From Candidatus Deferrimicrobiaceae bacterium (GTDB lineage: Bacteria; Desulfobacterota; Deferrimicrobia; Deferrimicrobiales; Deferrimicrobiaceae), in contig CAWBVY010000005.1 of NCBI GenBank assembly GCA_963792415.1, positions 57,889 through 121,888 of the forward strand: a stretch of DNA of 64,000 bases, written 5' to 3'. The notes beneath the pieces were generated by a model. It was not told where the DNA came from, did no database searches, and worked only from the letters and a program-made list of their open reading frames with translations. How positions within the stretch are numbered: position 1 is the stretch's first letter; each line of letters opens with the position of its first letter. Below, one piece after another: positions 39,975 through 62,397 of this stretch. The translations under genes were made by a program, and so were the position numbers.

Positions 39975-40056
39975 TCTTCCTTCGCCGGCATTATCCGGAT
40001 CAGGTTCAACGGGTATGTTCTCAGCCCGCCCCTGTCGGAACGAGCACCCCGGCTAG
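39975..40056 (-). ncRNA. TPP riboswitch
   Basis: GGGGTGC...GCTGAGA..ATACCC.TTGAACCTGATCCGGATAATGCCGGCGAAGGAA consensus upstream of thiSGHE. Confidence 0.95.
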
Positions 40057-40063
40057 TTACTAT

Positions 40064-40841: not shown

Positions 40842-41456
40842 TCAGGGGACGATCACCACGTCCCCCCGCCGGAGCAGGATGTTCGATTCGAGGTTCTTTC
40901 CCGCGATCACGTCGTCGTAGTCGAACGGGATGATGACGGTCTTCCCCCCTTCCCGGCGAAAGATCTTGATCCGGGACACCTTGGCGAACTGGTCGGGCCC
41001 CCCCGCGATCGCCAGCGCCTGAAGGACGTCGATGTTCGAGGTCATGAGCGACCGGCCGGGCGTCTTGACATGACCAAGCACGTAGATCTGGAGGCTGTTC
41101 ACCTGCCGGACCTCCACGGTGATGACGGCGTCCTTGACGTAGAGGGACAGCTTCCTCTCGATCTCCTTCTGGAGCTGGGCCACCGTCTTCCCCGCGGCCA
41201 CGACCTCCCCGACCATGGGATAGGCGACTTTCCCGTCCGGCAGGACGGTCACCAGGCGGGCCAGGTCCTTGTCCTTCCACACTTCGATGCTGAGCTGGTC
41301 CCCGGGTCCGATCCGGTAGTCCGGTTCGGCGGTCGCCTGGAGCGCGGCCTCCGCTTCGGGTCCCGGTATGGCCGCCTCCTTCTCCGCCGCCCGAAGCGGG
41401 AACGGTGCCAGCACCAGCAGGAACAACGCGACGAGCAGCCTCTTCACCACCCTCAT
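40842..41456 (-). CDS. Polysaccharide export protein (short OPX/Wza family)
   Basis: DYRIGPGDQLSIEVW, V.PDGK..YP.VG (PES), SLBB, L..GDVVIVP; ~204 aa; no lipobox Cys. Confidence 0.88.
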   Translation of the reverse strand: MRVVKRLLVALFLLVLAPFPLRAAEKEAAIPGPEAEAALQATAEPDYRIGPGDQLSIEVWKDKDLARLVTVLPDGKVAYPMVGEVVAAGKTVAQLQKEIERKLSLYVKDAVITVEVRQVNSLQIYVLGHVKTPGRSLMTSNIDVLQALAIAGGPDQFAKVSRIKIFRREGGKTVIIPFDYDDVIAGKNLESNILLRRGDVVIVP

Positions 41457-41711
41457 CCTTCTCTCCCTCTTCCCCTGCAACCGCGGGGATTCGTAATTAT
41501 ATCGAAGCGTGTGAACCGATGCTCCGAATGCGTCCGATCGCCGGGTGCATCGGGGTGCCGGCCCCGGGCTCCCGTAGTGGAATAAGAAAAACATGCATAT
41601 TTTTTCCACTATTGGAAAAACATTACCACGTCTGTCCATCCATCCGGTGCCTGCCGATATCCGTTCTGAATGAAAACGGTTGGTTACGGGCACTGCGTGG
41701 TGGCTTTGTTT

Positions 41712-41727
41712 CGGCACTTTTTTTGCA
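41712..41727 (+). promoter_or_regulatory. Sigma54 (-24/-12) promoter of the sugar transferase
   Basis: CGGCAC-TTTTT-TTGCA with exact GG-N10-GC spacing, ~65 bp upstream of the ATG. Confidence 0.7.
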
Positions 41728-41793
41728 GGAATTTTTCTCTGTTCCATTTAATCTTTTTTTCGCCGACGACACCGCATCAGAATTCAGGAATCC

Positions 41794-43063
41794 ATGGTTG
41801 CCAAAGAATCGATGAAACGGTATCTAAAACATATAAACCCGCTGACCCGGCTTCGGGACGCTGAAATCTTCAATCGCGTCCATTCCTCCAGAGAGTTCGC
41901 CTCGATCCTCCACCGGGAGCGCGACCGTGCCGACCGGACCGGGCAGGAATTCTCCATGGCCGTCTTCGCGGTCGGCAACGGCGGGAAGAAAACCGCCGCC
42001 GCGCGGAACCTCGTGCCCATCCTGACGCACCGGATCCGCTCCACCGACGCCATCGGATGGCTCGCGGACGGCCGCATCGGGTCGGTCCTCCCGCACACCC
42101 GGCCCGAATGCGCCTGGAAGTTCGTCGCCAACGTCCGCAAGGCGTACAACGGCAGCGCCTCCCCCGGAGTGCGTGGTGTACACCTATCCGTCCTCGTGGC
42201 TTCCGGGCGACGACGGGAACCCACCCCGGGATCCTCGCTCCCTCAGGAAAACACCCTCGCCGGGGGAGACCGGCGATTCCGGGATGATGTTCTCCCGCGT
42301 TGATGCCACGGACTGCGCAAGGCCGATCGAGGATCTGGAGCCGCATGTCCTGTTCCGGATCCCCCTGTGGAAGCGCGCGATCGACATCGTGGGATCGCTT
42401 GTCGCCATCCTCCTTCTGTCGCCGCTGCTCCTGCTGGTCACCCTGCTCATCAAGATCGTCTCGCCCGGCCCGGCCCTGTTCCGGCAAAAAAGGGTCGGCT
42501 ACCTCGGCAGGGTGTTCACCATGTGGAAGTTCCGCACGATGCACGTGAACACCGACACGACCCTTCACCAGAACTACCTTCGGGAGCTGATCCGCAACGA
42601 AAAAGAGATGACCAAGCTCGACCACATCAGGGACCCCCGGATCATCCCCTTCGGCGGTATTCTCCGCGCGACCGGCATCGACGAGCTCCCCCAGTTGATC
42701 AACGTCCTTCTCGGCGACATGAGCCTCGTGGGGCCACGCCCCTGCCTGCCCTACGAAGCGTATGAATACCACTCCTGGCAGATGAGGCGCTTCGACGCCG
42801 TCCCGGGCCTGACCGGCCTGTGGCAGGTGAGCGGGAAGAACCGGACCACCTTCAAGGAAATGATGCGGCTGGACATCGGCTACGCGAGGAAACGGGCGTT
42901 CCTGCTCGACGTGATGATCGTCCTGAAGACCATCCCCGCGATCGTCGTCCAGGTGGCCGACCGGCCTTCCAACGCCCACGCGCGGGCGAAGGAGCTGTCC
43001 GCCGTCACGCGGCTGGGCGCAGTGCTCTTCGCGATCCTCGTGGTGAACTCGCCCCACAAGTAG
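41794..43063 (+). CDS. Priming sugar transferase (Bac_transf) with N-terminal GGDEF-like domain (frameshift near 42163)
   Basis: KRAIDI, SPGP.LFRQ.RVG, KFRTM, DPRI, DELPQL.NVL.GDMSLVGPRP, PGLTGLWQV; the upstream part joins through a C-run. Confidence 0.88.
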
Positions 43064-43870: not shown

Positions 43871-44755
43871 TCACACCCGGGAATCTTTTCGGGCAACAAC
43901 GAACAGATTGTCGAGGTTGAAGAACCCCCCGCTCATGATGGAAACAACGCGCGGAAGTCTCGAACCATGCGTTCTTTAACTACGCGTTATCCGCTTTTAC
44001 TTCCTGAAATGCTTTGCACCGGATGCAGGTGGATGAACTCGACATGCGAAAACCCGTTCCGCTCCAAGAGCCTGCGTATACTACCCGTCGAGTAATGATG
44101 AAGATGATCGCGGGCCTGTAGGTACGCAATGCCGTGCCGCATACCCAGCATCCGCTGGAGTAATACGCGCCCTGAAGAGCTGGAGGTATACGTTCGGCGT
44201 GTAAATAAAACAGATTCCCCCTACCCGTAACAGGGCGTGACATCTCTGGAGTAGCGGCTCGGGCTGCAGGAAATGCTCCATCACATCCCACATCGTGATG
44301 ATGTCAAACGACCCTGGCGGGAATTCCGCCTCCTCAGGCCGGCCGCATCGAACGTTTACAAGGCCGAGCGACTCGCGAGCGTACCGGACTGCCGCCGGTG
44401 AGATTTCATAACCATAGGACTCCCACGGATCGTAGGCCGTCATCGCCTTGAGAAAATACCCGAGTCCGCACCCGACATCCAGGAGTCGTCCTGCACGTCC
44501 GACCAGGAATCTCCGGAAGAAGTCTTCGTGCATTCTGGCGCGAGCCTTGTTCCAATAGAAATGACCATCCTTTACGACTTCCTCTCCCCAAAACTCGTCG
44601 TGGTGAGGATTCGCAGCATAGGACGAGAAGACATGGCCGCAGTCACGGCATCGAAGGATGTCAATGCCGAATTCCCGGAAAACCGGTCTGTGTCGGTTGC
44701 TCCCGCAGAGCAGGCACGTGCGTGACTCTGCGCCCACGCAAGTGGCTTCCTTCAT
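43871..44755 (-). CDS. Class I SAM methyltransferase with N-terminal Zn ribbon (frameshifts in 3' half)
   Basis: CLLC...CRDC, LLDVGCGLG, FDIITMWDVMEH; DHLHHYS...LLERNGF continues in another frame. Confidence 0.8.
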
Positions 44756-44798: not shown

Positions 44799-47176
44799 TC
44801 AAGTAGACCGCGGATCGCTAATCGGCGTAAGGTGGCGCAGGAACTGTTCGTAGGAGACGCCGCCGCCCAACGACACCCCGCAGCGAGCGACAGGTATTGC
44901 GGGGTTACCCCGGACGAGGGTTTCCGGCGGGACGGAGCGAAAGACGACGCTTCCGGCGCTCACGACAGCCCCCCGCCCGATGGTTACGTTGGGAAGGATG
45001 ATCACGCCGGGCCCGATATACGCGTTGTCCTCGATTCGAACCGTGGGCTGGTGGATCTCCCTGGCCGGCTTCGTAAGGTCACGCAAATGACCGATGATGG
45101 TGGTGCGCATCCCGATAGTAACGTTGTTCCCTATCGAGACCAGTCTCGGATACGCATTCTCGATCATCGCAAAAACGCCAATGGACACATTCTCACCGAT
45201 CGAGACCCCGCGCATGCGGTGAAGCCAGACCCGTGTCGTCATGTAACCTGGAGCATAGAAGGCAAGCAACTGGAGGAGACGGTTTTTCATACCGCCCAGT
45301 GCCGTATCCCGAATAGGCTTCATGCTTTTTCCTTTCTTGACCATAACAGGCGAATCGGGGAGTGCCGTCCTCTCTGCTTGGATGAGCCCAGCCAGTGTTT
45401 GAATCGTCGGCGATCTCAGAAAGCTATCGACGGGAAGCGTCTTCTTGAACCTCTCTTCGATTTCGAGCACCATTGACGCGGTCGCAAGCGAATCTCCCCC
45501 CAGACTGTAAAAGTTGTCGTTGATGCCCACCTGATCGACGTGGAGCAGATTTTTCCAGATGTCTGCAAGTTCTTGCTCGATGGAATCCTCGGGAGCGACA
45601 TATTTTACCGTGAGGTATGCTGCCAGCTTCTCAGCAAGGCCGATGCGTTGCAGCTTCCCGGTTGGACCTTTCGGGATCTCCTCCACAAAGACAATCCTGC
45701 CCGGAACTTTGAAGTCCGTAAGGCGAAGGGAGGCGAATTCGCGGATTTCCGCCTCGGTCACGTCGGCGTTCTTCCGCAACACGAGAGCCGCTGCGATGTC
45801 CTCGCCCAGCGTCGGGTGGGGCACAGCGAATGCGATGGCTTGCGCAACGGCCGGGTGCTGGATAAGGATTTCATCCACTTCCTTTGGAGCGATCTTCTCT
45901 CCTCCGCGGTTGATAAGCTCCTTGATCCGGCCCGTAAGGAACAGATATCCATCGCCATCGAATTTTCCCTGGTCTCCCGTCCGAAACCAGCCGTTGCAAT
46001 AGGCGTTATCGTTCGCTTCCGAATTGTTCTCGTAGCCGTTCGTGACGTTGTCTCCATGGATGACGACCTCTCCGACCTGCCCGACAGGAAGGAGATTCCC
46101 GATATCATCCATGATGGCCACATCCGGCCCCGCGGCGGTCCCGACCGAACCCGCCTTGCGAAGCAACGGAGGCAGTTGATTGCTGGTCATCTGGTGGGCG
46201 GCTTCCGTCATTCCATAGGAATCGATCACAGGTGCATCGAAGACCTTCTCCAACTCGACCATGACCGCTTCCGGTAACGAAGCGGAACAGGAACGGATGA
46301 ATCGCAGAGGACGCCGATCGATGATTTCCCGGTATGACGAGGCGCGGGCGAGAATCGCCTGCTGCATGGTAGGGACAGCGGTGTACCAGGTCGGTCGCAA
46401 CGTATCCAACCACTCGAAGAATCTTGTCGGGTCGAATCCGGGTGTGCAGACCACGCTCGCACCGGCGGCCAGTGAGGACAGAACGCACCGATGAGCCCGT
46501 GAATGTGGAACAAAGGCATCACGTTAAGGCACCGGTCGTTCTCCTGCAGGTTCAGGGTTGCGGAGATGTTGCACGCAGATGTGCAGATATTGGCATGTGT
46601 CAGAGGAACGATTTTCGGTCGAGACGTGGTCCCCGAAGTATGCAGCACCAACGCCGTATCGTCCGGCAGGGCGAAGCTATCTACATCCGGAGTCCCCCGC
46701 GTTCCGCTTTTCAGTTCGAACAGACCCGCCACGGATTCGAGGGTCTGCATCAGTTCGATAATGGGGATATCGTGCTTCTGCGCCACCTCCCTGGCAGGTG
46801 AATCCGACTCCGATCCTACGATTAACGCCTTTGCCTGCAGGTCGGAGATAGAAAAGTCGAACTCATTGACCCTGTAGACGGGATTCAGCGGCGCACACGT
46901 CGCCGTGGCCGCGACCGCGACGAATGCAACCGCCATTTCCGGGCCATCGGGCAACACGATCGCAATGCGGTCGTTCCGATTCAGACCGAAGGAGCGGAGC
47001 GCCGCCACCGTCTTCTCGACCTGACAAAAAAGCCGGGCATACGTCAGAGATACTCGTCCAGGAGCCATGATGGCTATCGCCTCGGGGGTCTGGTTTGCAC
47101 GGGACCTCAGAAGCTCATAGACGCTCCTTGCATCCGGGCTATTGTATGCCCTTCCACTGCTTGGGGAATTGATCAT
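44799..47176 (-). CDS. Adenylation + carrier protein + LbH acyltransferase fusion (frameshift near 46484)
   Basis: HTSGTTSRPK, PLFHIHGL, FIRSCSASL, YGMTE, WFRTGD, GEKI, PKGPTGK; NFYSLGGDSL; hexapeptide repeats ending GNPA. Confidence 0.85.
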
Positions 47177-47312: not shown

Positions 47313-48062
47313 TTATCTCGACTCGACTGACCTCTCATCCGCAGGGTTTATGCCAAGCGCGCACGCGACGGATACGGGCTTGCTCTCCTTTACCTCCAAG
47401 CGTACGTACACGAATCCGGCGAGCTCAAGATTCGAGGCAAGTTCCTTCCCGATCTCGGTTGCAGTTGCATCCGTGGCCCCTCGGGATCTTGGCTGGAGCG
47501 TGACAGCGATCAGGCCACCGGGTTTCAACAACTTTCTCAAATCCTTCAGACAGTCGACCGGATTCGACCAGAAATGAATCGAATTAATAGTGAAAATCTT
47601 GTCGAACGGCTCCTCGAAACTCGGCAAGTTGGTCACGGATGCCAGCCCCAACGCCACCTTGCCGTCGCGTATCCCCTTGGCGTTTCGCTTTGCCGCTTGT
47701 CGCAGCATGATCTCCGAATGGTCGAACCCTGCGACAAACCCACGAGAGGCAATCCGGCTGACCTGTTCGATCGCAAGGCCCGGACCAAAACCGATCTCCA
47801 GCACACGATCTTGCGGTCGAATGTCTAGCAAGGAAACGACCCAGCGTATCCTTTCCCTGTTCGACGGAGTGTGGGCCATGACCTTGCCGGAAACACATCC
47901 CCAAAACCCCATGGGACGACCAAACTGCGCACGCAGGAATTTCCGGATGGATTGACGCAAACGACTCGGCCTTTCACCGCTCCCCGGCTGTACCTGAAGA
48001 CCTGGATACTTCAAAGATGTTTCCACCTCTTCCGCCTTCGGCTCGTTAATTTTGACGACCAT
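47313..48062 (-). CDS. Class I SAM methyltransferase
   Basis: QFGRP.G..G, VLEIGFGPG, FDKIFTINSIHFW, LKPGG. Confidence 0.85.
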   Translation of the reverse strand: MVVKINEPKAEEVETSLKYPGLQVQPGSGERPSRLRQSIRKFLRAQFGRPMGFWGCVSGKVMAHTPSNRERIRWVVSLLDIRPQDRVLEIGFGPGLAIEQVSRIASRGFVAGFDHSEIMLRQAAKRNAKGIRDGKVALGLASVTNLPSFEEPFDKIFTINSIHFWSNPVDCLKDLRKLLKPGGLIAVTLQPRSRGATDATATEIGKELASNLELAGFVYVRLEVKESKPVSVACALGINPADERSVESR

Positions 48063-49457: not shown

Positions 49458-50489
49458 TCACGAATCAGCATCGGACCCGTTGCGCGCCATCGTTGATTCT
49501 TCGACGGAAACGTGGCGAAGCCAGCTTTCACGCCAGTATGGGTAGATCTCGCGTGGACAGAAATGTCGGTGCATGCTGAGATCTCCCGAGCAGACCACGC
49601 CGTCCAATGTGACGCAATCTGTCTTGAGCTCTATCATCCGACCGGTTTTGTCGTCGATGAATCGTTTCACACGTTGCCTGACTTTAAAGGTTCCTCCGCA
49701 GAAAGGAAGCATCTCCCTGTCGAACCACAGCCCTCTCTCGCGGCCTTCGGGAGTAAGGGTTGCGGCAATCTCCTCTTCTCGATTTCACCTGGACCCAGTC
49801 TCCGGGTTGCAGACCAAGGTACTCGTCCGAGGCGGCCCGGTCCGTGTACCCGGCAAACGGAACCGTAGGAAAAAGACCATATCTTGCGGAGCGGTTCCTC
49901 GATGAATGCGCGGGCGGTTACGCGGAGAAATCGTCCAAGTTGAACATTACCGCAAGTGAACTCCCGCACATATACGCGGGGATCCCAAACACTGAGACGG
50001 GTGGATGCCTTGAATAGCTCGGTAGCCTGGCATCGATAAACCTCCACCGGTATACCGTCCTGCTCCAGAGTCTTCTTGGCATGACGGGAGGCCCGCTCGG
50101 CGAGCAGCGTTGGATCGGTCCGTCTCAACCGTGAGGAGAAACGGGGGTTCCCTCGGAGAAATCCGACGCAGCCACGATTCCTTCCAAAAAAGGCGGCATT
50201 CTGCCTGACAACCGTCGTGCCCGGACCCATCGCAACGAAGATCTTTCAAGAGCACCGTGTTACGTATTCTCCGACTTCCGTATGTCTTGATGGTGTCGCA
50301 AATTTTTTCCGCCCGCTTGTCAACAACAAAGCGGTGTCCGCAATAACGTAGCATCATGGTCATGAAGGGGAGCCCTTCCAGGGCGCCCTCCTCGTCGAGG
50401 GTTGCTAGAATCTCTGTTGCACTTTTCACCTCGATTACATCCCCACGCCGCAGACCCCTTGTAGTCTTTAATCCCATTCTTGATATCAA
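49458..50489 (-). CDS. Hypothetical protein with an internally duplicated Cys-containing domain (frameshifted)
   Basis: Two copies of GD...VKS..EI.ATL...G...GL.F...M..[YF]CG..F.V...C.G...C......W.ESWLR. Confidence 0.7.
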
Positions 50490-50589
50490 AAAATCACCTC
50501 AGTATGAGATTTTTCTCTTTAAATAACCGAATAAAAATACTCTTTAGTTATAAAAACATAACTTATAATTATTTAATTCATCGTAAATT

Positions 50590-51252
50590 TTATAAAAATA
50601 ATATACATTTCTTGCTATAAAAGGCCTCCGCGAAATTTGTTTTTGAAACACACTCCATCCCTCGGATGCGCAATGTAGAATAAAGGAGATCTTCCGTCAA
50701 CCAGTGCTTTTTGGTTTGTGTCTTGAAGAACTTAAGAATAGCGTTAATTTTGTTTTTACAGATAAAAGGATGCAAGGGCACGAAGAAATTCGGCGACCCG
50801 AAATCCCCGTCGTATTTGGGGATTTCGTACTCCAAAATGAGATGATTGCGGAAGGTGTTCCATGTCAGTTCTGAAATCGTTCGTGATCCTGATGAAGATC
50901 CATCCGGTAATGAGTAAATATAAGATCTGGGGAGAATCCTTCTTTTAATATCTCAAAATATTTTTTTATTTCTCCACCATCATATGGGAAAAAACCGTTT
51001 TTGAATTTATTTATCTCTATTGTTTTTTTATTAGCACGTATTTTAAAAATACATTGGCGCTTACTCTCGCTTCCTTTTCTCTCTTTGAATCCGAACTGAA
51101 AACTACCCAATATACTTCTGACTTTTTTATATTTTTGCAGCACGCTCAGCAATGTACCACCGCAACCGATTTCGATGTCATCGCAATGGGCGCCAAGGCA
51201 TAATATTTTTATGCTTTGATTATATTTCTTATTTAATTCCAGACGCCAACAT
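50590..51252 (-). CDS. PIG-L/LmbE family deacetylase (frameshifted)
   Basis: LCLGAHCDDIEIGCGG, FTH...DLHQDH, EYEIPKYDGD, AEAFY. Confidence 0.82.
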
Positions 51253-51309
51253 AGCCTTATCCTTTTCCAGACGTCATAACGTTCTCTACTCCAGGTTATT
51301 CCTGTATTA

Positions 51310-52089
51310 TTATTTTTTTTCCATATCTCCCATAGAGCATTTCCCTTGGAATACATATCATCAAGAAGCTGTTTGTCCTTGAAGGTGTCCATGGCGACCC
51401 AGAATCCGTTGTATTTATATGAAATAAGTTGTCTTTCTCGTATCAATCTCCTGAATGGTTCTTCGACCAGTTCCTCACCTCTTTCGATGTAATTGAAGAT
51501 GTCCTTTTTAAAGATGAAAAATCCACCATTGATCCAAATGTTCGGCTTTGGACAGGTGCTGGATTTCGTCCACCATCATGTCCTCGTTTACCGAGACGAC
51601 GTGGAAACTTTGGGTTGGCTGGACAGAAACAAAACAACCCACCTTGTTATGTCGATGAAAATCTTCCAGCATCTTTTCCAAGGGGACATCCGAGAGACCG
51701 TCGGAATAATTCGCTAAAAAGACCTCCTCTCCTTCAAGGTGCTTTTCGACGGCTTTCAAACGTTGCCCGATGTTCGAATGCAACCCAGTATCCACGAAAG
51801 TGATCCGCCAATCTTCGATATCGCTTCCAAGAAGTTGGAGGTTTTTCCCTCCCCCTGACAACACGAAATCATTCGAAGTGCACTCGTTATATTCGAGAAA
51901 ATATTTCTTGACGATGTCGCCACGGTAACCGAGGCAGAGGATGAAGTCCTTATGACCGTAACTCGCGTAATATTTCATCACATGCCACAATAGTGGCCGA
52001 TATCCGATCTCCACCATCGGCTTGGGAATCCGATCCGAATATTCCCTTAACCTCAGTCCCAGGCCACCGCAAAAGAGTACCACTTTCAT
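51310..52089 (-). CDS. rfbF: Glucose-1-phosphate cytidylyltransferase (frameshifted)
   Basis: MKVVLFCGGLG.RL...PKPMVEIG, LCLGY, VDTG, NYSDG, GFW.AMDTFKD. 3' end approximate. Confidence 0.88.
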
Positions 52090-52137
52090 CTCACCCTCCG
52101 TTTCTTGCCGAATTCACTCTACTGATCCCCCGGAGTG

Positions 52138-53505
52138 TCAACGACCATCCCAGGTGGGTCCACGATCGATCGGCCAACTTAATGCTATGGCTTGCAGATG
52201 GTCCTCAAGCCAGGTTTCACCCAGAAAGTGCTTGTACTGATCGGCACGAAGTTTATCGGCGATGCGCCCTTCCGGCAGTTTCACGTCATTGTAGGTAAGC
52301 ACGGAATCTTTTAGGACATCACGTGTCAGCCGGCAACCTTCGACGAGCCCCTCCGGCAGGTAGCGGTTTGCGCACATTTCATCAACGTTCACCGCCTCCC
52401 CGTAGGTCATGTACATCCCGTACCCATCGAGCACTTCGCCCGCCTTGAGATCGCGCTTTGCGACCGCGCAAACTTCGACTACCGGACCACCGAGTGGCGG
52501 CGCAACATCATCCCCGAAGATCACCACCCGCGCGATGGCATATGGCACCTCGAAGTGCACGAGGTGGTACGGCACCCAGAACGGATACAGCGGCCCCTCA
52601 CCCATTTTGTACAGGTTGAGATAGTGCCGCTGTTTCGGATCGGTGTGCTCCGCAAGGCAGTACACCTTTACACCGGCGGGCCCGACCGTGTAGTCCACGA
52701 TGCCACCAAAGGACCGAAGTTCCTCGACGTCATAGAGTTTCGGGAGGTCCATGATGTTTCCATCGTAGACCCTCCCTCTCGACATTCCCCGTGACATCAC
52801 CTTGAATCCGGTGGCGTTCGCAACGATCGACTGTTCAAAACTGATCTTCGATCCGTCGGCGAAAGACGTTACCATCGCGGCGTTCTGTCCCCACTTCTCC
52901 GCCCACCCTTTCTGTGTGGTGGGGTTTCGATAAGGATCCTGCAGCCCCTTGACGTTCCCCATCACGCGCGGGATAAGACCAAGTCCCTTCACCCAGCGGA
53001 ACAGGTTCATCTGGGCGCCAGGTTCGTCGCCCTCGCACGCCGAGAGAATGACGCCATGCTTCCGCGCATGTACCTGAAGGATAGGACCGAGGGTTGCGTC
53101 CACTTCCGCGTTCATCAGCACGACCGACTTGCCGAATTGAAAGGCTTCGAGGATCACCTGCGCACCGAACTCCACCGAACCCGTCACGTCCACAACGACG
53201 TCCACTTCCGGGGAACGGCAGATCATAAACGCGTCTTCGGCGACAACGGGTTTTCCACGGCGGATCGCCTCGTCGAGTGCGGACTGCGTCCCGGCGGATA
53301 CCACATCCTTGCAGCCAGAGTATTCATAAACGTGGAAGGCACGCTCCGGGCGACGGTTGTAGACCACTGACATCCGCATGCCCGGCACGCTGTTCACAAT
53401 CTGGTTGGTAAGCCCCTGCCCCATGAAGCCGGCACCGATCATCCCCACCCGAATCGGCTTTCCTTGCTCTTCTCTGGCCCGTAGGGCCTTGTCCACGATA
53501 ATCAT
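52138..53505 (-). CDS. NAD(P)-dependent oxidoreductase with C-terminal SAF domain
   Basis: IGAGFMG, MNAEVD.T.GP, GDEPG, SFADGSK, AVAKRDLKAGEVLDG.G. Confidence 0.85.
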   Translation of the reverse strand: MIIVDKALRAREEQGKPIRVGMIGAGFMGQGLTNQIVNSVPGMRMSVVYNRRPERAFHVYEYSGCKDVVSAGTQSALDEAIRRGKPVVAEDAFMICRSPEVDVVVDVTGSVEFGAQVILEAFQFGKSVVLMNAEVDATLGPILQVHARKHGVILSACEGDEPGAQMNLFRWVKGLGLIPRVMGNVKGLQDPYRNPTTQKGWAEKWGQNAAMVTSFADGSKISFEQSIVANATGFKVMSRGMSRGRVYDGNIMDLPKLYDVEELRSFGGIVDYTVGPAGVKVYCLAEHTDPKQRHYLNLYKMGEGPLYPFWVPYHLVHFEVPYAIARVVIFGDDVAPPLGGPVVEVCAVAKRDLKAGEVLDGYGMYMTYGEAVNVDEMCANRYLPEGLVEGCRLTRDVLKDSVLTYNDVKLPEGRIADKLRADQYKHFLGETWLEDHLQAIALSWPIDRGPTWDGR

Positions 53506-54069
53506 ATTGTTCCTCATCTTCCTCTTCAGCTCCCCCTCAACCTCCTGAAGAAACTTCCAACTCGCATCCTTCTCCGATATTTCTTCCACGGGCAAAGGCC
53601 AATTGAGCCGTAGCCTGGGTCATCGTATCGAAGGCCACCTTCCACGCCGGGCGTGTAGAACTCGCCGACCTGGTAACTGGTCTTCTGTTCCGTCCTCGAG
53701 CACCTGATATCCGTGAGCAAACCGTTCCGGAACGTAAAGTCCCCTGTGATTATCCGCGGAAAGTTCCACCTCTATATGCTCGAGGTACGTGGGGCTCTCC
53801 GGGCGCAGGTCCACGATGATATCTATGATTGCGCCCCGCGTGCAGCGAACTAGTTTCGTTTCAGGGTTGGGAGGGAACTGAAAATGCATTCCACGAAGCG
53901 TACTCTTCGTTCTGTTAAAAGCGACATTTGCCTGGGCGATGACCGTCTTGAGGCCATGCTCCGCGAATTCCTTTTGGCAGAAAGCACGCGCGAAAAAACC
54001 ACGGTTGTCTTCTCGACGTTCGATGTCAAGCACGAAGGCCCCTTTGAGCTTCGTTTCGCTGAAAATCAT
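53502..54069 (-). CDS. rfbC: RmlC-like NDP-4-keto-sugar 3,5-epimerase (frameshifted)
   Basis: DNRGFFAR, TLRGMHFQ, KLVRCTRG, DLRP.SPT, FAHG, G.RYDDP, ISEKD. 3' end approximate. Confidence 0.85.
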
Positions 54070-54148
54070 CTCTTCCCTCCTGGGGCTAAATTCAGATTTG
54101 TTTTTCTTCCGTGCGTACGATTTCTTTCTCTGTATCCTTTTGGACTCC

Positions 54149-55183
54149 TTAGGCCTTTTGGTTCACCCATCGGAGGGTTTCGTCCAGACGCCCGTGGGAA
54201 AGCAGTTGTTTTATGTGTTCGATTCGTTTATACCGTGGCCCCTCGAAATCTTCCTGGCGAATCCCGTGCTTCTTGTACGACTGGTAGATCTCTTCCGCAC
54301 CGGACGAGGCGTCCCACTTGTGCTTGTAGTCCGGAAAGGTAGAATGAAACTTCCCGAAATCGACCCGATAGCATCTCTTGTCGGGGCCCGCATCCTTGGC
54401 AAACTCGATCCGGCATCCCGGGACGGTCTTCTCGACGATTTTCGCCAGATCGAGAATCCGGTAGTTTTCCGAATTGCTTCCGATGTTGAACGCCTGATTG
54501 TGAACCGTCTCCCGTGGCGCCTGCAGGATTGTTATGAAGGCTCGGGCGATGTCTTCGACATGGACCAAAGGACGCCAGGGCGTGCCATCGCTCTTGAGGT
54601 ATACAAGCCCGGAAGCAAAGGCCCATGCGACAAGGTTGTTTATGACGAGATCAAATCGCATCACGGGGAGAAACGCCGTAAGCCGTTGCATTCCGAAGGA
54701 ATGTCGGGCTGAAGGTGTCGTCGGCCAAGGCAGCGACATCCCTTTCCACCAGAACCTTGGTCGTCCCGTACGGGGTAACGGGATTGAAGGATGCCTCCTC
54801 GTTCAAGATATTGTCCCCCGACGCCCCGTACGTGCTGCAGGAGGAGGAAAAAGGAATCGCTTTACCCCCGCCTCCTTGGCGAGTCTGCGCAGTCCTTACG
54901 GACGCCTCATGGTTGATATCGAAGGTCAGCCGGGGATTGAGATCGCTTAACGGGTCGTTGGAGAGTGCGGCAAGATGGATGACAGCATCGAACCCTTCAA
55001 GATCGGCGAGTTCGGCGTCACGGATGTCTTTCCTTGTGAACGGAAATTTCGGAAAAGCCGGACCGTAGGAGCACTCCGCGTATAGATCGCTATCGAAACC
55101 CGAACCTCATGGCCTTCCTTCATCAGCAAGGGTACAAGCACGGAACCGATATACCCGTTCGATCCGGTTACCAGGACGTGCAC
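54149..55183 (-). CDS. NAD-dependent epimerase/dehydratase (multiple frameshifts)
   Basis: VLVTGSNGYIG, HLAALSNDP, SSCSTYG, NPVTPY, RFDLV.NNL, SDGTPWRPLVH. Confidence 0.85.
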
Positions 55184-55222
55184 GTTGTCTCCTTTCCCTG
55201 CGATAATTAATAACGATTAATT

Positions 55223-56737
55223 TTATTTTCCTTCTGAAGAAGGCTTTCTTGACTCTTTGATAAGATCAAGGAAAATGGATTTCTGTCCCATAACGTACAA
55301 TAACATCCAAAGATACGATACAAGGAGAACACCGCCTCCAATCAGCAGCCTCAACAAAGTAGAACTAGTATAACCGGATAATTGTAGAACTCCGACCGAG
55401 AGAGCCGCAGCCACGATTCCGGAAAAAAACGGCCGGCCAATTGCCTGAAGAATATCGCGGGAAGAAATGGATGTGCCGTGTTTTGCCCACGCGATCATCG
55501 GGATAACCAATAGGGTCATCCCTACGGAAAACCCGGTTGCCACACCGGCAGGGCCATATCTCAGTCCAGCGATATAACCTGCAATTACCACGGGTGCGAT
55601 GACCAATGCCATTTTCAGGCTTCGATTCACATTCCCTTTGGCCATGAGTAACGGTCCAAAGGGATTTATCAGCGCGAAAGCCAGTCCTGTAGGAGCTAAT
55701 AAACGAAAAACCAAGGATGCATCTATCCACTTCGGGCCAAGAAGAATAATAATTAATTCCTCAGAAAATAACAAGCATCCGATAACAAATGGAATAGTTA
55801 AGGCTAATACAAGAGAATATCCTCTTAAAAAATAACTCTTGAATCGATTTGGATCGTCCTGAAGACGTGAGAGTGTAGGGAACGCCACAGAGTCATTAGC
55901 CGAATTTAATGAATTCAATGGCAAGTTAAAGAGCTGATAGGACCTCCCGTATATGCCAAGCGCTCCTGCCCCCCAATAGCGGCCCAGGAGGACCTTATCT
56001 ACATTGTATGCTGCATACATAACTATGCTATTCAGAGTTACTGTGCCACCGAAATGCAGCGTGGACCGGACCCCGACATTACGGCGAGGCATACCGGGAA
56101 TCCATGGCAAGGCAAGCCAAACACAAATTGCATTCGTTGCTGGTAGTGCGACCTGCATGCCTACCAGCGCCCAATATCCAAATCCTCCGACAGCCAGACC
56201 TATTCCAACGATAATACTGACCAATAAGGAAAGGAGATCGATGACAACCAGCAAAAAATATTTAAAATTCCTTTTTAATATCGCCTGATGCTGGGTCGCG
56301 AACGCATTGAAGATAAAACCGGAACCCAATGCCACTGTTATCCAGAACAGCCTTGGCTCTTTATAAAAAGAAACGAGAACCGGCGCGATCGCAATCGATA
56401 GGCAGCCAAGTACAGTTCCGACAGCGACGTTAACCCAAAACAACGTGGAAACCTGCTCATCCGTGATGTTCGAACGCTGGACAGTAACCATGGACAGGCC
56501 TGCATCTTTGAACAAACCGATAATGCCCGTCACCGCGGTAACCATGCCGACTAATCCGAACTCTTCCGGCAAAAGGAGCCTGGCCAATATCATCAAGGAA
56601 CCTGTACGAAGTGTGAAAGTAACAGGTTGTGCAAAAACCGATATGAAACCACCTCGAATAGTCTTGGCCTTTAAATCCGTTAAAACAATTTCTGCTTCTA
56701 TTATTTTACTAGAACTTGTATCGGTTTCTTTACTCAT
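55223..56737 (-). CDS. wzx: Wzx flippase (WzxC/PST family)
   Basis: LARLL.PEEFGLVGM, D.GL...VQ, G.GYWALV, N.DK.LLGR..G...LG.Y; many TM segments; intact. Confidence 0.88.
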   Translation of the reverse strand: MSKETDTSSSKIIEAEIVLTDLKAKTIRGGFISVFAQPVTFTLRTGSLMILARLLLPEEFGLVGMVTAVTGIIGLFKDAGLSMVTVQRSNITDEQVSTLFWVNVAVGTVLGCLSIAIAPVLVSFYKEPRLFWITVALGSGFIFNAFATQHQAILKRNFKYFLLVVIDLLSLLVSIIVGIGLAVGGFGYWALVGMQVALPATNAICVWLALPWIPGMPRRNVGVRSTLHFGGTVTLNSIVMYAAYNVDKVLLGRYWGAGALGIYGRSYQLFNLPLNSLNSANDSVAFPTLSRLQDDPNRFKSYFLRGYSLVLALTIPFVIGCLLFSEELIIILLGPKWIDASLVFRLLAPTGLAFALINPFGPLLMAKGNVNRSLKMALVIAPVVIAGYIAGLRYGPAGVATGFSVGMTLLVIPMIAWAKHGTSISSRDILQAIGRPFFSGIVAAALSVGVLQLSGYTSSTLLRLLIGGGVLLVSYLWMLLYVMGQKSIFLDLIKESRKPSSEGK

Positions 56738-56788
56738 AAATATTAATATATTACAAAAAATATCCCGGAATATAACTGAACATGATTT

Positions 56789-57925
56789 TCATGTTAATGT
56801 ACTATCTTCTAGCACCACAGACGCCATATCACTTAATTTCTTTTTTCTTTCAAATAACTCGGCCAACCCTTTCAGGTTTGCCATCTTTAATACCTCTTCC
56901 CACCTATACGCCCAATCGTGTCTCAATAAAGATTCGGTTGTATTTTTTTCCCTTATTTTTTCCTGTCGGAAAGGTTGTTTATCTAAATCGCCAATAATTT
57001 GCTCTATTTTATCTGAGTCATATGGTAAATGAATGACAGAGTCAGGCCAATAAAATATTTTTCTGAATTCTTCATTATTCGGATGTTCCCCTATCATAAT
57101 AGACCCAGAGGCAAGTCCTTCAAAATATCTAGTTCCGATCTCACTTTGACTGTTTATTTCAGAAGGAGAATCTATTTTTCCTGGATTTACTAAAAAATAT
57201 CTACTCCTCTTTGCAATATTGGAAAATAATAACCGGTGTTGTCTTCTGTTTAAAACCTTATCCCCAATTATAGAATCATAAATATAAAATATATTATTTT
57301 CTTTAACCATTTTCAATATACTACGATGTGTTTTTTCTGATCTACGCCCAACACTATAAACATCTATCAAACGTTTATTTTTTCCCGGATACGGACAATA
57401 CAGAATCGAATCGATGCCAGGAGGCAAATAAGAACATTTTTCTCCAATCACTTCGTTAACCGCATCAACGCTTTGACTACAGTTTATTATGACTTGATCA
57501 AATTTAGATAAAATGCTCAAATAGCACCTGTATTTATAAATTTCGGATATCCAAATTTCGTTCAACCAGCAAATCGAAGTTTTACAGTGATCTTTCCACC
57601 CTTCAATACTTTCGACATGTAACAAATCTTTTGGAAACTGGCAAACAGCAAAAAACAGGTCATAATTATTATTAATATTAGTTTTTGGAATACCAGGATT
57701 CATTGAAACAGCATATTTATGCGCCAGTTTCTGAGCAATTCGTGTCCCTTTACTAAACCATTTATTAGGTAATGGTGAAATTAAATCTACTGCATCCATT
57801 TCTTGAATTAAATCTTCGAATTCATACAAAGAACATCTATAATGAAATTTTTCTAATATATTTCGCTGAGAAAACATAAGAATACGCGCAGGAATCAATT
57901 TATTTCTATCAGTTACGCTTGGCAA
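56789..57925 (-). CDS. Putative glycosyltransferase (CgeB / Glyco_trans_1_2-like)
   Basis: C-terminal RYFEGLASG...HDWAYRW pattern; TTG start; AT-rich; intact. Confidence 0.7.
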   Translation of the reverse strand: MPSVTDRNKLIPARILMFSQRNILEKFHYRCSLYEFEDLIQEMDAVDLISPLPNKWFSKGTRIAQKLAHKYAVSMNPGIPKTNINNNYDLFFAVCQFPKDLLHVESIEGWKDHCKTSICWLNEIWISEIYKYRCYLSILSKFDQVIINCSQSVDAVNEVIGEKCSYLPPGIDSILYCPYPGKNKRLIDVYSVGRRSEKTHRSILKMVKENNIFYIYDSIIGDKVLNRRQHRLLFSNIAKRSRYFLVNPGKIDSPSEINSQSEIGTRYFEGLASGSIMIGEHPNNEEFRKIFYWPDSVIHLPYDSDKIEQIIGDLDKQPFRQEKIREKNTTESLLRHDWAYRWEEVLKMANLKGLAELFERKKKLSDMASVVLEDSTLT

Positions 57926-58038
57926 TTAATGTTCCCGGACTTTCCAGCATATTATTTTTATTCCCAACTGTATTCAAACTGCATCAACGGGGAAAAATCA
58001 TATCTCTTTACTTGTTGTCTGATGGAAAATCGAATCCA

Positions 58039-59088
58039 TTATCCGAGCAGTAAGGATGATTTCTCTGTACGGAATGGGTTCCGGTCCATCTCCCGGATTG
58101 CATTATAAAATTCTTTCACGAGTTGTCTTCGGCCGTAATCCACGTGGAAATCGTTTCTCATGAATCGGCCGACATTTCTTCGTGCGTTTCCAAGATATTG
58201 TTTGGCAAGGATTCGTGGAGCGATGAAGTGATTCAGGTAGCTCTTTCGGTGTATCGGATTTTCTGAGCTGTATGAGGATCCGTTGATTATGATCGAGGAC
58301 CAAGTGAATTCTCCGGACCGTAGAGCCTGAATTGGAATATTTTCGGGCTGATCTGGGAAGAGAACGTGAAATAGGCCGATCGTGTTCCGGTCTGTCGAAT
58401 GCATGACCACACGCAATTCATCGATGATGTCCTCCTGCCCGATGCTTCCGCAGAAAGGGACTCGTTTATCCGACCGCGATGACTTTCGGGGACGAATCCG
58501 GCCAATATTCGGCGATCTTGCATACCCCATGACTGATGACGTTGTGCAGCAGTTTGCCCGGCAGCGCCCTTACCCAGTGGTTCCTGTCCCCGAGGAGCGC
58601 CTGACCATACTGGTCCTGGAGACCATAGGGAAAGTAGCTTTCCATGTGGATGGGCGGCCTCCAAGAAAACCGGCCTTCACCAGTTCCCGCATTTCCATGG
58701 ATTCGTGGCTGAACTGGTTATTGTGGCCGACCGTTATCCTCCGGTTCCTGCTCCGCGCCAGTTCGATGACGCTTTCCGCCTCCTGCGCGGTGACGGTAAA
58801 GGGTTTTTCCATGAATACGTGCGGCACCGGATTCAAGAGACATGACACCGAAGGGAAAATGACTTTGCGGTGGAGTGGTGATGTGCACCACGTCCGGCCG
58901 CACCGCCTCCAGCATCGCTCCGACATCGGTGAAATGCCGGCTCACGCCGTACCGTTCCGCAAGCTGCCTGGCCATCAGCTCTTCCCGGTCGCAGACACGC
59001 CGACGATCGAGCAACCGGGGAGCCTCGCCACGAGACTTGCATGCTCATCCGCGATCTTTCCGCACCCGATGATGGCAGCCTTGATCAT
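58039..59088 (-). CDS. Gfo/Idh/MocA oxidoreductase (multiple frameshifts)
   Basis: MIKAAIIGCGKIA, PDVVHITTPPQSH, HVFMEKPF, TVGHN across frames. Confidence 0.8.
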
Positions 59089-60148
59089 GGTTCTACCTCC
59101 CGCCGTCCTGCAATAATCGAAGAAACGCTGCGATGCCTCACTGAAGGGAACGATGGGTTTCCATCCCAGCCGCGTCTTGATTTTCTCATTGGAATACCGG
59201 TTCCCCTTCCAGTCGCGTTGACCAGCGCGTCCGATTGAACACGTCGGGAAGCTGTCCGTCCGACCAGACGGAATATTTCTCCCAGAGAACGCTGAAGAGG
59301 CGGCTGACGATTTTCGGAACGTAGAACGATCGGAAACTGGCCACGTTCTTCTTGTACATCCGCAGGAATTGCCTGCTTGTGGGCAGGTCATCGTCGACCA
59401 CATTGAACACCTCTCCATCAACACCGTACCGTCAGGCCCGCAAGGACGATGGCTTCCGCACAATTGTCCATGTAGGTCAGCGGAATCCGGTTGGATCCGC
59501 CCAAATGCAGGAATGGGCCGAACGTATCGATTCCGATCCTCCCGTGAATTCCCTTGATGCCGGGACCGTATACGACGCCGGGCCGGACGATTACATAGGG
59601 AAGCCCCCTCTTCTCTCCGTATTCCATAACGAGTTCGTCCTGTTTGATTTTCGCGTAAGGAATAGGCCTCCCCTTTCCGGGTCGGTTGATCTTCCATCGG
59701 GCAGGTTTCGTCCAGCAGGGCACCGGCTTTCATCCGGGTGTTGTCGTAGATGGAGAAGGAACTGACGTTAACGAATCGAAGAAGCCGCGTCGGTCGAAGG
59801 GCCGCCTCCAGCAGATTCCTGGTCGTCACGACCGAGTTCAGGTAGGCCTCGGGCATGGACTTCAGTCCTTTGCCGGCGGCCAGATGATATATGATCGGCA
59901 CCCCTTCTACCGCCTTTTCGCAGTCCTCGGTCGATAACAGGTTGCCCGGGACGATCTGGATGTTTCCTCCGGAACCCTTCTTCATTTCAAGTGAGTGGCC
60001 GGATGGCACTGGAGGGCCTTACAAAGCAGCGGATATTCTTGAAACCGTGTTCGAGTAAACGGGCTACGACCTGTGTTCCGATGAATCCGCCCGCTCCCGT
60101 GACAAGCAGTGGCTCCTCGAGAGAAACTGGCAGTCGTCTGGTTCCCAT
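59085..60148 (-). CDS. NAD-dependent epimerase/dehydratase (multiple frameshifts)
   Basis: LVTGAGGFIG, YHLAA, VSSFSIY, Y...K, VRPGVVYGPG, FNVVDD. Confidence 0.82.
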
Positions 60149-60181
60149 AGAACCTCCCGTAAATTTTCGTTCTGCATCCGT

Positions 60182-61088
60182 CTACTCGACGACGTACTTT
60201 TCCGGGATCACGTTGATGCCCGCGCGCCAGTCAGGACCCGCCCGAGGTGATCACATATTTTCACCAGGTATCTCATGAACAGATGTTGACCGATAAGGGC
60301 CAGAACCGGAAGCAGAATCAGATAGATCTGGTATGGCGATCAGGGAGATCATGACGCTTTTCCACCCCATATTCGGGTGCCGGAGGGACATCTTGCCCCG
60401 CAAGAGCGCCCTTCTCAAAGAAAACTTCGCCGCCACCGGGTAGAGGGAATATGCTCGTATCCCGACCGCCTCGTTGCACCACACGAACCGGTAGCCCTTC
60501 GCAGATCTTCCTTCGGAAGAAATCCTGATCTTCCCCGCCGCTGCCGAATCTGGGATCAAACGGCTGGGGGTCGCCTGCAAGCACGCTTCTTCGGATCAAG
60601 ACATTTCCCGTCCGTCCGTTTCGCCACCCGATGACCATGCCGGTCGCGTGGGTCGGCCGTTCGTAGAAGTCACCTTTGACGACCCACTGCGGCGGATTCT
60701 CGTCGAATATAGGTTTCACTGGCCCCAGTACCCCGTCGGCCTGATATCCTTGCTGCGCCAGGTAAAGCGTCCGCAGCCAGTCCCGCCGCGGGGATTGATC
60801 GTCATCGAAAAACGCCATGTAGTCACCGACGGAATTTCTGACGGCCCTGTTCCGGGCAAGGGAGATGTTCTGCTCGGGCTCGATCTCGTAGGAAACGGCT
60901 ATTCTCGAGCGGCGGGCAAACGCCTCAACTACATCCCTTGCGGACCCCTTGTCGTCGTTGTCGACAACGACGACCGAGTGCCCGAACATCCCCGAGGTCT
61001 CCTGCGCCTCCAGGTCCGAAAGGAGGTCGGAAAGTAAATTCGGTCGCCGAAAGGTACAGATGCAGACGCAGATGTGGTCCGTACTCAT
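60182..61088 (-). CDS. GT2 glycosyltransferase (ExoM-like; frameshifted)
   Basis: ICVCICTFRRP, VVDND, ARN, FFDDD, TGNVL, FDPRF..GGED..FF. Confidence 0.85.
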
Positions 61089-61150
61089 TTTAGCCTGCCA
61101 CAATCGCGAATCAGAAGGGGAGGAGAACGCCAGTAGGCCGTATGCCGGAA

Positions 61151-62149
61151 TCAGTCCTTCCATATCTTCCTTGCGAACTCCATGGCGATGATTCTTTCCA
61201 CAGGAACTACTGGCTTTTCGAGACTGAACCTTTGCATGTGTCGTGAAAGATTCCCGTTGATCATGCCGGCAGTGCCAAATGTCATGTCCACCATCCCGGT
61301 CGAATGAACTTCCTTGAAAAACCGCTCCCCGACATTCCGGTCCGTATGGGGAAAAGCAAACGCCCCATAGAGCAGGTCAAACGTCTCCCGGACAGATCGA
61401 GTGCTCTCCACGGTCTGGCGCACCTGCTCTTCTACTGCGATGTCCGCAAACAGGGGATGGTCTATGCCGTGCGACCCAATCGTAAACCCTTGCCGGATCA
61501 GGTGGCGGATCTGGGATGAATCAAGGTATGGTTTGTGCGTCGAGAGATAACCATCCAGATCCACCTCCATGCTAACTGCCAATTCATCCAACACGTCTCT
61601 CTTGTCGTATGGGACCGACAGGATTGCGGATGAGATGTCCTTGCCGCCGATGCCTCTCGTGGTCAACTTTGCCCTCATTGCCTGCACTGCCCCCTCGGAC
61701 ACTCCACCTTTCGCTTTCTCCACAAGAATACTCGCCTTCTGATGAAATATCAGAGCCCGGTTATCGGTGGAAGCGCTGTTCAGGAAAAATGTCGCGGGGA
61801 TTCCTTTCCGCATGAGAATGGGAGCAACGACATCGTGCATTTCCCGGAAGCCGTCATCGAAGGTCAGGTGGAAAGACCGTCTGGGAAACCCGGTATTTCC
61901 GAGTACTGCGCCCAGCACATCAGTCAGGCTCACCGGGTCGAATTGTTTCAGAAGATGTTCCAGGTCGTTCGTGAATTCCCGGGTACCCTTGTACGGGTAA
62001 AGATTCTGTACGTGGATTGCCTTCTGATCGCTGATGATGTGGTAATACGGGATGATGAGGGGAATCGGGTTTATTTTTTCATGGAATTCCAACGGTATAC
62101 GTACGCAAACTCTCGAGGCAATTTCCTTCTTGAATTTCATATCCTGCAT
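61151..62149 (-). CDS. Polysaccharide deacetylase (CE4/NodB)
   Basis: PYYH, LTFDDG, PATFF, IGSH..DHP, FAFP. May extend to ~61085 through a frameshift. Confidence 0.85.
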   Translation of the reverse strand: MQDMKFKKEIASRVCVRIPLEFHEKINPIPLIIPYYHIISDQKAIHVQNLYPYKGTREFTNDLEHLLKQFDPVSLTDVLGAVLGNTGFPRRSFHLTFDDGFREMHDVVAPILMRKGIPATFFLNSASTDNRALIFHQKASILVEKAKGGVSEGAVQAMRAKLTTRGIGGKDISSAILSVPYDKRDVLDELAVSMEVDLDGYLSTHKPYLDSSQIRHLIRQGFTIGSHGIDHPLFADIAVEEQVRQTVESTRSVRETFDLLYGAFAFPHTDRNVGERFFKEVHSTGMVDMTFGTAGMINGNLSRHMQRFSLEKPVVPVERIIAMEFARKIWKD

Positions 62150-62397
62150 TTCTTGGAAAATAAGTATCTGACCTGGAGGTAGCTCGCATCCGCTACACCT
62201 CCCAGGATCGCGGTGATGGATTCCAATGCGGTAGTATATGGTCTATTTGCGATTAAAGAACAGTATATCGCGACCAAGGATGAACTGGTTTCGCTTTCTT
62301 CCTGTAAAAGGCGTGAAAATGCGAAGGGCCCGTTTGACGCGCGAAACGAACTGGACGTCCGTTCAAGCGAAGAAGATCTTGACATCAGAACTCGATA

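Follow-up and report, generated by a model that had tools for sequence, protein, structure and literature searches.

Introduction

The oxalate-CoA ligases AAE3 (5IE0), LsOCS (6QJZ), Pcs60 (8AFF) and the oxalyl-CoA synthetase (OXS) of M. extorquens are stand-alone enzymes mostly engaged in oxalate breakdown, while LsOCS feeds a BAHD acyltransferase via oxalyl-CoA; oxalate-CoA ligases have also been characterised in a preprint (bioRxiv 10.1101/2022.08.30.505785). In bacteria oxalate has so far been known as a degradation substrate or a secreted acid, and its bacterial biosynthesis is called a knowledge gap in a review (PMC11045627). Acids bound to a carrier protein and handed over to an acceptor are met in other systems. 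Pls and PosA (TIGR02353) follow an adenylation-carrier-left-handed beta-helix (LbH) logic, and the LbH enzymes LpxA and LpxD take an acyl group from acyl carrier protein (ACP) to acylate a sugar. In the fungal Fum10p/Fum14p pair a ligase from the broad subfamily to which the oxalate-CoA ligases belong loads a polycarboxylic acid onto a carrier for transfer. Here we describe a gene which combines elements of several such systems. It occupies positions 44799-47176 on the minus strand of a 64,000-nt stretch of DNA (“the window”) from Candidatus Deferrimicrobiaceae bacterium (GCA_963792415.1, contig CAWBVY010000005.1, positions 57,889-121,888 of the forward strand) and encodes an adenylation domain of the oxalate-CoA ligase type, a carrier and an LbH acyltransferase domain within one chain.

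We rate the chances as roughly even that this protein is a soluble oxalyl-transferase organised like a nonribosomal peptide synthetase (NRPS), in which oxalate would be adenylated, loaded onto the carrier and transferred by the LbH domain to a glycan precursor. This assessment is based on sequence comparison, predicted structures and gene context.

Domain architecture of the fused protein

The gene is read in two frames, an N-terminal one of 231 aa ending in FHIHGLIGA and a C-terminal one of 561 aa beginning with VLSSLAAGASVVC, which have base 46484 in common. A Pfam scan detects AMP-binding in both pieces, while the C-terminal frame alone holds AMP-binding_C (residues 202-277), PP-binding (304-368) and Hexapep (482-515), all above cut-off, which results in the order AMP-binding, AMP-binding_C, PP-binding, Hexapep. 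The initial annotation, made from the sequence alone, had proposed a full ANL adenylation domain, a phosphopantetheine carrier and a C-terminal hexapeptide domain, and the scan bears this out; the motifs quoted there were all found in the sequence. An intact relative (P0004) is 85% identical to the N-terminal and 88% identical to the C-terminal piece. In a frameshift-aware alignment to the window DNA its residues 1-792 are aligned with a single 1-nt deletion at 46482-46484 and zero stops. As had been suggested, the repair of one missing base near 46484 thus yields an open reading frame (ORF) of ~790 aa; no real stop separates the domains in this 792-codon alignment, and the junction between carrier and LbH domain lies within the uninterrupted 561-aa frame.

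A query consisting of carrier and LbH domain led to 377 homologs among 3769 candidates of 308-982 aa. Carrier and Hexapep are both present in each of the 120 homologs listed, 82 of which are intact adenylation-carrier-LbH proteins of 772-823 aa. Because of these 82 homologs and the full-length alignment of P0004 with its single gap, the fusion can be ascribed neither to chance nor to an indel artefact, the latter being rejected as well by the three C-terminal domains sharing one frame. The adenylation-carrier-LbH architecture is real and conserved. It comprises, in one chain, an adenylation domain, a carrier with a conserved Ser and a terminal catalytic domain, as is the case for NRPS-like enzymes of the A-T-X type; with carrier and LbH domain fused on, it departs from a stand-alone oxalate-CoA ligase of ~510 aa.

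A profile search against 50% clusters was dominated by giant NRPSs, with seven of the 150 listed rows representing single-stretch matches. In the plasmid collection none of 29 records covered 80% of the full-length fusion, and no relative of the LbH domain was present at E 1e-10. Promoter and terminator scans did not exceed chance level.

The adenylation domain and its predicted substrate

The best PDB matches of the adenylation domain by sequence are AAE3 (439 bits), LsOCS (427 bits) and Pcs60 (381 bits), while the top entry not related to oxalate scores 263 bits. The same oxalate-CoA ligase entries rank first by fold if the AlphaFold model of the domain (predicted local distance difference test, pLDDT, 76.6) is used as the query. 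A generic fatty-acyl-CoA ligase can be rejected since all NCBIfam ligase models remain below cut-off and the oxalate ligases are ahead by over 100 bits. Similarly, the domain does not qualify as an amino-acid-activating one: TIGR01733 attains 68.5 versus 317.4 bits for the N-terminal piece and is not in the best 25 for the C-terminal piece, and the pocket is devoid of the NRPS Asp.

The specificity and catalytic pocket of AAE3 includes Ser289, His319 and Lys500 (PMC8905533). In the fused family the equivalents of its eight residues read I/H/(S,C,A)/S/(G,S)/M/H/K, with the following occupancy in the 82 full-length homologs: Ile 82, His 82, Ser/Cys/Ala 48/32/2, Ser 82, Gly/Ser 69/13, Met 82, His 82 and Lys 82. 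The counterparts of S289, H319, H216, M314 and K500 are accordingly invariant, and those of Ser289, His319 and Lys500 are retained in the window copy, too. The pocket test discriminates, as an A-carrier relative which is 37% identical has a different pocket. A Gemmobacter plasmid (L003, 7992-10613) encodes an A-carrier protein of 873 aa that differs both in its pocket and in its C-terminal domain.

The fused adenylation domain is 56-60% identical to CoA ligases. OXS of M. extorquens is described as a characterised oxalyl-CoA synthetase with a KM of 9 uM in a report which also contains the cloning primers (PMC7154664). Both primers fit P0301, which is 59% identical to the fused adenylation domain and probably represents the cluster of this enzyme. 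One stand-alone relative adjoins an oxalate/formate antiporter gene, whose product scores above its cut-off, and a gene for a PanE-type reductase. In a quick tree of 40 rows, which has long outgroup branches and is devoid of AAE3 and Pcs60, 19 fused adenylation domains are separated from 15 stand-alone ones (support 97) inside one common clade (support 94). The AAE3/Pcs60 assignment made by the initial annotation is sustained by sequence and fold matches, the pocket and the identity to P0301. Taken together, the acid activated is probably oxalate.

Carrier and LbH domain

The attachment Ser of the carrier is present in all 82 homologs, which agrees with the earlier notion of a self-contained protein bringing its own carrier in the same frame. 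Equally, the catalytic His of the LbH domain is found in 82 of 82 homologs as well as in all 23 LbH domains that are more distant, and aligns with the His of 3ECT. The hexapeptide LbH nature of the domain is evident from Pfam PF00132 (above cut-off) and from a model with a pLDDT of 93.5; the fused protein contains a single such unit of ~170 aa. Foldseek ranks maltose/galactoside O-acetyltransferases as the closest folds, and 3ECT superimposes with Z 14.1 and a root-mean-square deviation of 3.0 over 138 aligned residues.

Acetyl-CoA-using LbH members are described as having a Trp opposite the catalytic His (PMC3046976). In the window copy this position is occupied by Tyr, which is invariant across 82 rows, and the Trp occurs in two of 23 aligned LbH domains. 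An acetyl-CoA-dependent LbH enzyme of the MAT/GAT/NeuO type is rejected on these grounds. The basic residues usually following GNPA, which in LbH enzymes presumably bind CoA, are replaced by a conserved C-terminal extension in the fused LbH domain. The initial statement that LbH enzymes normally use acyl-CoA turns out to be overstated considering the adenylation-carrier-LbH model of Pls/PosA, the LpxD-ACP entry 4IHF and the use of acyl-ACP by LpxA and LpxD.

For chlorobenzoate ligase, motifs that hold CoA are described (PMC10455477). In the small subdomain of the adenylation domain, position 456 is Lys or Arg in 116 of 117 stand-alone ligases and Thr in 81 of 83 fused rows, one of which is mis-trimmed; at position 494, Lys or Arg in 112 of 117 stand-alone ligases stands against Gln (65) and Arg (15) in the fused rows. 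Going by motif, we take both positions to flank the CoA-holding motifs of chlorobenzoate ligase.

LbH acyltransferases are homotrimers whose active sites lie between subunits. Docking of the carrier alone onto an assumed LbH trimer yielded a score of 0.46 versus 0.13 for the best control, with a contact agreement of at least 90% and a partner pLDDT of at least 81. In the calibration the mark was reached by 116 of 157 solved and two of 215 mismatched pairs, and at scores of 0.60 or under by 18 of the 157 solved pairs and both mismatches. The score may, in addition, reflect the solved LpxD-ACP complex, and we consider it weak support for a contact between carrier and LbH domain. With its carrier in the same chain and the attachment Ser invariant, the protein very likely loads the activated acid in cis.

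The LbH subfamily outside the fusion

A scan of GTDB matched 246 stretches, of which 90 were confirmed and 80 kept, with 75 loci returned. Eleven of them reach an LbH domain identity of 50% or more, namely seven with fused genes (from Terrimicrobiaceae, Rokubacteria, two deltaproteobacteria, two Nitrospira and Terriglobia) and four with stand-alone LbH genes (L011-L014). Three of these four have adenylation or carrier genes nearby, and two of the three belong to exosortase-type loci. Members of the LbH subfamily (52-66% identical) also form the terminus of one KS-AT-KR-ACP and one KS-AT-ACP-C-A-PCP protein, of three C-A-PCP proteins, of an A-carrier protein with a luciferase-like insert and of C-PCP proteins. 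In each fused architecture seen, the LbH domain follows a carrier. Because the same subfamily ends polyketide synthase (PKS) and NRPS assembly lines, it looks like a domain that unloads carriers, in the position usually taken by a thioesterase.

The PKS, PKS-NRPS and NRPS proteins with a terminal LbH domain are P0273-P0278, P0187, P0200, P0260, P0174 and P0232. One exosortase locus (L013, 5055-10471) encodes an amino-acid-type adenylation domain, a carrier, FkbH and a stand-alone LbH protein of the subfamily, as well as an ORF judged by eye to be FabH-like, which has no family match; it may represent the same logic in split form, serving another acyl group. A fusion locus (L009) contains a second, stand-alone LbH gene of the subfamily at 14211-14699, whose product is 46% identical to the window domain.

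A conserved cassette and a neighbouring lyase

The gene order deacetylase-methyltransferase-fusion-methyltransferase found in the window is mostly the same in the related loci, and the deacetylase-MT1-fusion-MT2 cassette is conserved across several phyla (Table 1). Two methyltransferases on either side of the gene, now supported by Pfam, and adjacent deacetylases had been noted initially. The upstream frameshifted gene encodes a deacetylase with the CE4 polysaccharide-deacetylase fold, whose relatives contain the metal and catalytic motifs HDVD, HGxxHDH and THPE. Glycosyltransferases, a flippase, Wzy-type or NDP-sugar enzymes are encoded in five of the seven related fused loci, and polysaccharide genes surround the window gene as well, so that the suspected link to polysaccharide loci is upheld by the neighbourhood survey.

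In four of the seven fused loci, twice in one of them, a lyase gene of the ICL/PEP-mutase family is present, which does not occur in 68 control loci (~1 Mb). As the two Nitrospira copies are 97% identical, this linkage represents three independent lineages. Besides the solved relatives and the pocket of the adenylation domain, we take it as a third line of evidence for oxalate. For oxalate-forming hydrolases, Ser281 (A. niger numbering) is described as a marker (PMC3256194). The lyases exhibit the ICL/PEP-mutase fold with a CGH gating loop and not the PEP-mutase motif. All five copies possess a Ser which aligns with Ser257 of petal death protein and with a Pro of methylisocitrate lyases, a column that we assume to be that of the A. 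niger marker. A PEP mutase or phosphonate pathway is rejected by the motif and by a score of ~85 against a cut-off of 320. Lyase relatives of 44-45% identity are encoded on actinomycete plasmids, where the cassette does not occur.

Table 1. Coordinates of the features of the window and of the lyase genes in related loci.
Feature	Position	Strand	Remarks
Fused gene	44799-47176	minus	split once, at base 46484
N-terminal 231 aa of adenylation domain	46484..47176	minus	P-loop LHTSGTTSRPK, pocket motif FHIHG; 85% identical to P0004
Single-base frameshift	46482..46484	minus	probable read error; alternatively a recent mutation
Remaining oxalate-CoA-ligase-type adenylation domain	45615..46484	minus	RSCS, YGMTEAAHQ, hinge, catalytic Lys
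Carrier (PP-binding) domain	45381..45575	minus	Pfam PF00550, E 6.6e-14; attachment Ser codon 45489-45491
LbH acyltransferase domain	44799..45314	minus	N-terminal helices, catalytic His codon 45087-45089, family-specific C-terminal extension
Class I S-adenosylmethionine-dependent (SAM) methyltransferase MT1	47313..48026	minus	intact; ortholog in 7/7 related fused loci
Class I SAM methyltransferase MT2	43877..44755	minus	frameshifted; ortholog in 5/7 related fused loci, one contig stopping 146 bases past the fused gene
CE4/NodB-type deacetylase, ~445 aa	48062..49370	minus	three frameshifts in the window; ortholog in 6/7 related loci
Polysaccharide locus	50590..64000	minus	PIG-L deacetylase, RfbF-like nucleotidyltransferase, DRL/SAF oxidoreductase, RmlC-like epimerase, NAD epimerases, Wzx flippase (55223-56737), glycosyltransferases, second deacetylase, pectate-lyase-like protein
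Locus boundary	40842..43063		Wza-type export protein (minus), initiating sugar transferase (plus)
Lyase genes, L005	4882-5736 and 8502-9341		on both sides of the fusion
Lyase gene, L007	654-1541
Lyase gene, L009	3856-4752
Lyase gene, L015	5053-5979

Further features of the window

Between the deacetylase gene and the polysaccharide locus lies a frameshifted gene (49461-50498, minus strand) that has no Pfam or NCBIfam match; a stretch 56% identical to it is present in the exosortase locus L013 (309-1664). Within the polysaccharide locus, the GC content falls to 43% (50001-52000) and 38% (56001-58000) compared to 62% overall, which suggests a mosaic origin. Positions 1-36000 harbour the core genes bamA, lolD, lolC/E, lysS, prfB, lnt, leuS, nusB, ribH, ribBA, fabF/G/D, plsX and gltX, with tRNA-Gln and tRNA-Glu at 35328-35480. 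At 25098-26999 (minus strand) RpiB and serine hydroxymethyltransferase are joined in one frame free of stops, which reflects either a genuine fusion or a lost stop. A thiamine pyrophosphate riboswitch (39960-40061, minus strand) precedes thiS and thiH genes (36900-39944).

Proposed mechanism and alternative readings

In the mechanism that we propose for the oxalyl-transferase, the adjoining ICL/PEP-mutase-family lyase would, in some hosts, split oxaloacetate to provide oxalate. From this the adenylation domain would form oxalyl-AMP, a step strongly suggested by the pocket and by its relatives. The invariant Ser and the architecture imply that the oxalyl group would pass to the phosphopantetheine of the protein itself, not to CoA. 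Subsequently, the carrier would present it to the His active site of the presumed LbH trimer for transfer to a glycan precursor or repeat unit in the cytoplasm. Gene context suggests as the acceptor either a hydroxyl or, as the initial annotation had envisaged, an amine, which the co-conserved deacetylase would have freed. More speculatively, one of the methyltransferases may place its methyl group on the sugar or, as a cap, on the free carboxylate of the oxalyl group.

A number of observations weigh against this proposal, in addition to those named below along with the alternatives. There is no lyase homolog within the 64 kb of the window, and three of the seven related loci contain none in the stretch examined. 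The lyases score best, though below cut-off, against methylisocitrate lyase models, while fungal oxaloacetate acetylhydrolase (OAH) ranks only tenth among their sequence matches, and such a ligase gene is found near none of four relatives of the lyase from actinomycetes (Streptomyces). Two of the seven loci have no clear polysaccharide genes in the stretch examined, one of them (L007) containing an exosortase and a deacetylase only and the other (L015) being cut off. No amino-sugar aminotransferase is present among the scanned ORFs of the window or of the seven fused loci. The acceptor is assigned from the gene neighbourhood, and we regard a glycan in this role as somewhat favoured.

The same oxalate and carrier chemistry might instead serve a lipid or a small molecule as acceptor. 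Deacetylase and methyltransferases would then yield a small metabolite or else a tag linked to a lipid, and the cassette would merely travel with exopolysaccharide loci. This is unlikely, albeit to be taken seriously. The best NCBIfam match of the LbH domain is heptaprenylglyceryl-phosphate O-acetyltransferase (80.5 bits, cut-off 300), and the cassette stays constant while the sugar genes surrounding it vary from locus to locus. Moreover, the LbH fold cannot name the acceptor, as many families of sugar, amino-acid and antibiotic acyltransferases are tied at Z 13-14. The polysaccharide genes of the window and of five related loci, the maltose/galactoside O-acetyltransferases heading the Foldseek ranking and the polysaccharide-deacetylase fold of the partner hydrolase speak, however, for a glycan.

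It is quite unlikely that, within a functional family, the window copy has become a pseudogene and its locus has begun to decay. Decay is suggested by indels in seven of the 11 locus genes tested, some perhaps alignment artefacts, while most core genes in the first 1-40 kb match full-length models. Yet the lesions are single-base indels, the alignment to P0004 is free of stops, and all catalytic residues are retained; furthermore, the core gene thiE of the window is likewise frameshifted, and the cassette of another locus (L008) is broken in a similar manner at different places. For base 46484 a read error is likelier than decay.

Still less likely, the domain activates another small acid, such as glyoxylate, pyruvate, malonate or sulfoacetate, derived from a lyase that acts on a different substrate. 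Several 2-hydroxy and 2-oxo acids are substrates of the ICL/PEP-mutase lyase family, and fungal Fum10p, from the same subfamily as the adenylation domain, activates a tricarboxylic acid. LsOCS accepts glyoxylate besides oxalate, 61-fold more weakly (PMC8905533). The automatic annotation of some stand-alone relatives reads sulfoacetate--CoA ligase, which keeps this alternative alive, and three of the eight pocket positions differ from AAE3 (Val to Ile, Cys to Ser in most homologs, Ala to Gly or Ser). The same three deviations are, however, common to 117 stand-alone bacterial ligases, a narrow set with members 71-100% identical to one query, which include the probable OXS cluster and the member from the oxalate-antiporter operon; and the lyases have Ser where methylisocitrate lyases have Pro.

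An ordinary oxalyl-CoA synthetase fused to a CoA-dependent LbH transferase, the carrier being secondary or vestigial, would fit the identity of the adenylation domain to CoA ligases, its preserved Phe equivalent of the adenine pocket, Arg494 as one of two CoA-side basic residues retained in the window copy and the stand-alone LbH genes, but it is highly improbable given the invariant carrier Ser, the carrier preceding the LbH domain in every fused architecture seen, the adenylation or carrier genes near three of four stand-alone copies and the absence, from most members, of both the Trp of the CoA type and the basic residues behind GNPA.

Implications

If the proposed oxalyl transfer applies, oxalate would be used as a building block tethered to a carrier, probably one for a surface glycan, and would constitute a new substituent, whose oxalyl groups could bind metals or calcium in soils. 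Bacterial genes resembling oxaloacetate hydrolase would gain a function. An LbH domain in thioesterase position would be a candidate release domain for genome mining, connecting PKS and NRPS lines to glycans. Only tentatively, and as a generalisation which may well not hold, we suggest that in several phyla of soil and sediment bacteria an exopolysaccharide receives oxalyl or methyl-oxalyl groups from a dedicated cassette of lyase, CoA-free adenylation-carrier-LbH protein, deacetylase and methyltransferases, the LbH subfamily providing a general release of PKS and NRPS chains to glycans. The literature searched, which leaves most subscription journals, a frequent home of glycan structures, outside its scope, contains no description of the fusion architecture, of an oxalyl-carrier or of an oxalylated polysaccharide; for this reason it is weak evidence of novelty.

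Comparison with known systems

AAE3, LsOCS, Pcs60 and OXS are the closest relatives of the adenylation domain that have been solved or characterised, and share its specificity residues. In contrast to these enzymes, the window protein has a carrier and an LbH domain fused on, is encoded in a biosynthetic locus and belongs to a branch of its own in the quick tree described above.

With regard to domain logic, Pls and PosA come close and appear among the carrier-LbH look-alikes with a score of 0.82, to be taken as a lead only. They activate amino acids, are membrane-bound, polymerise and possess three LbH units per chain, which in a predicted model of the C-terminal domain are described as packed in the manner of sugar acyltransferases (PMC10522769). 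The fused protein has one soluble LbH unit and a carboxylic-acid pocket instead, and membership is rejected with 42.8 bits for TIGR02353 against a cut-off of 423.1.

LpxA and LpxD likewise move an acyl group from a carrier to a sugar, and the LpxD-ACP complex is among the structures matched. Their beta-helix is long, though, they use free fatty-acid ACP and have no fused ligase; the scores are correspondingly low (37.6 bits versus a cut-off of 226, Z 8.6-10.9). The LbH enzymes of the MAT, GAT, WcaF and YvoF-like type are closest in fold and have the His in the same loop, but MAT/GAT-type enzymes are the acetyl-CoA users whose Trp is a Tyr in the fused domain, which also differs by the replaced basic residues and the extension at its C-terminus. 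The Fum10p/Fum14p system is fungal, consists of two proteins and employs a condensation domain with a polyketide acceptor. Finally, three PKS transcripts of Karenia brevis are described as having an LbH domain at or near the C-terminus, with carrier-LbH ends (PMC5725682); these PKSs, compared by description only, are uncharacterised, eukaryotic and devoid of an oxalate-type adenylation domain. Each part of the window protein has a precedent. It belongs neither to the stand-alone oxalate ligases nor to Pls/PosA nor to the acetyl-CoA-dependent LbH enzymes, and yet would work like a mix of them.

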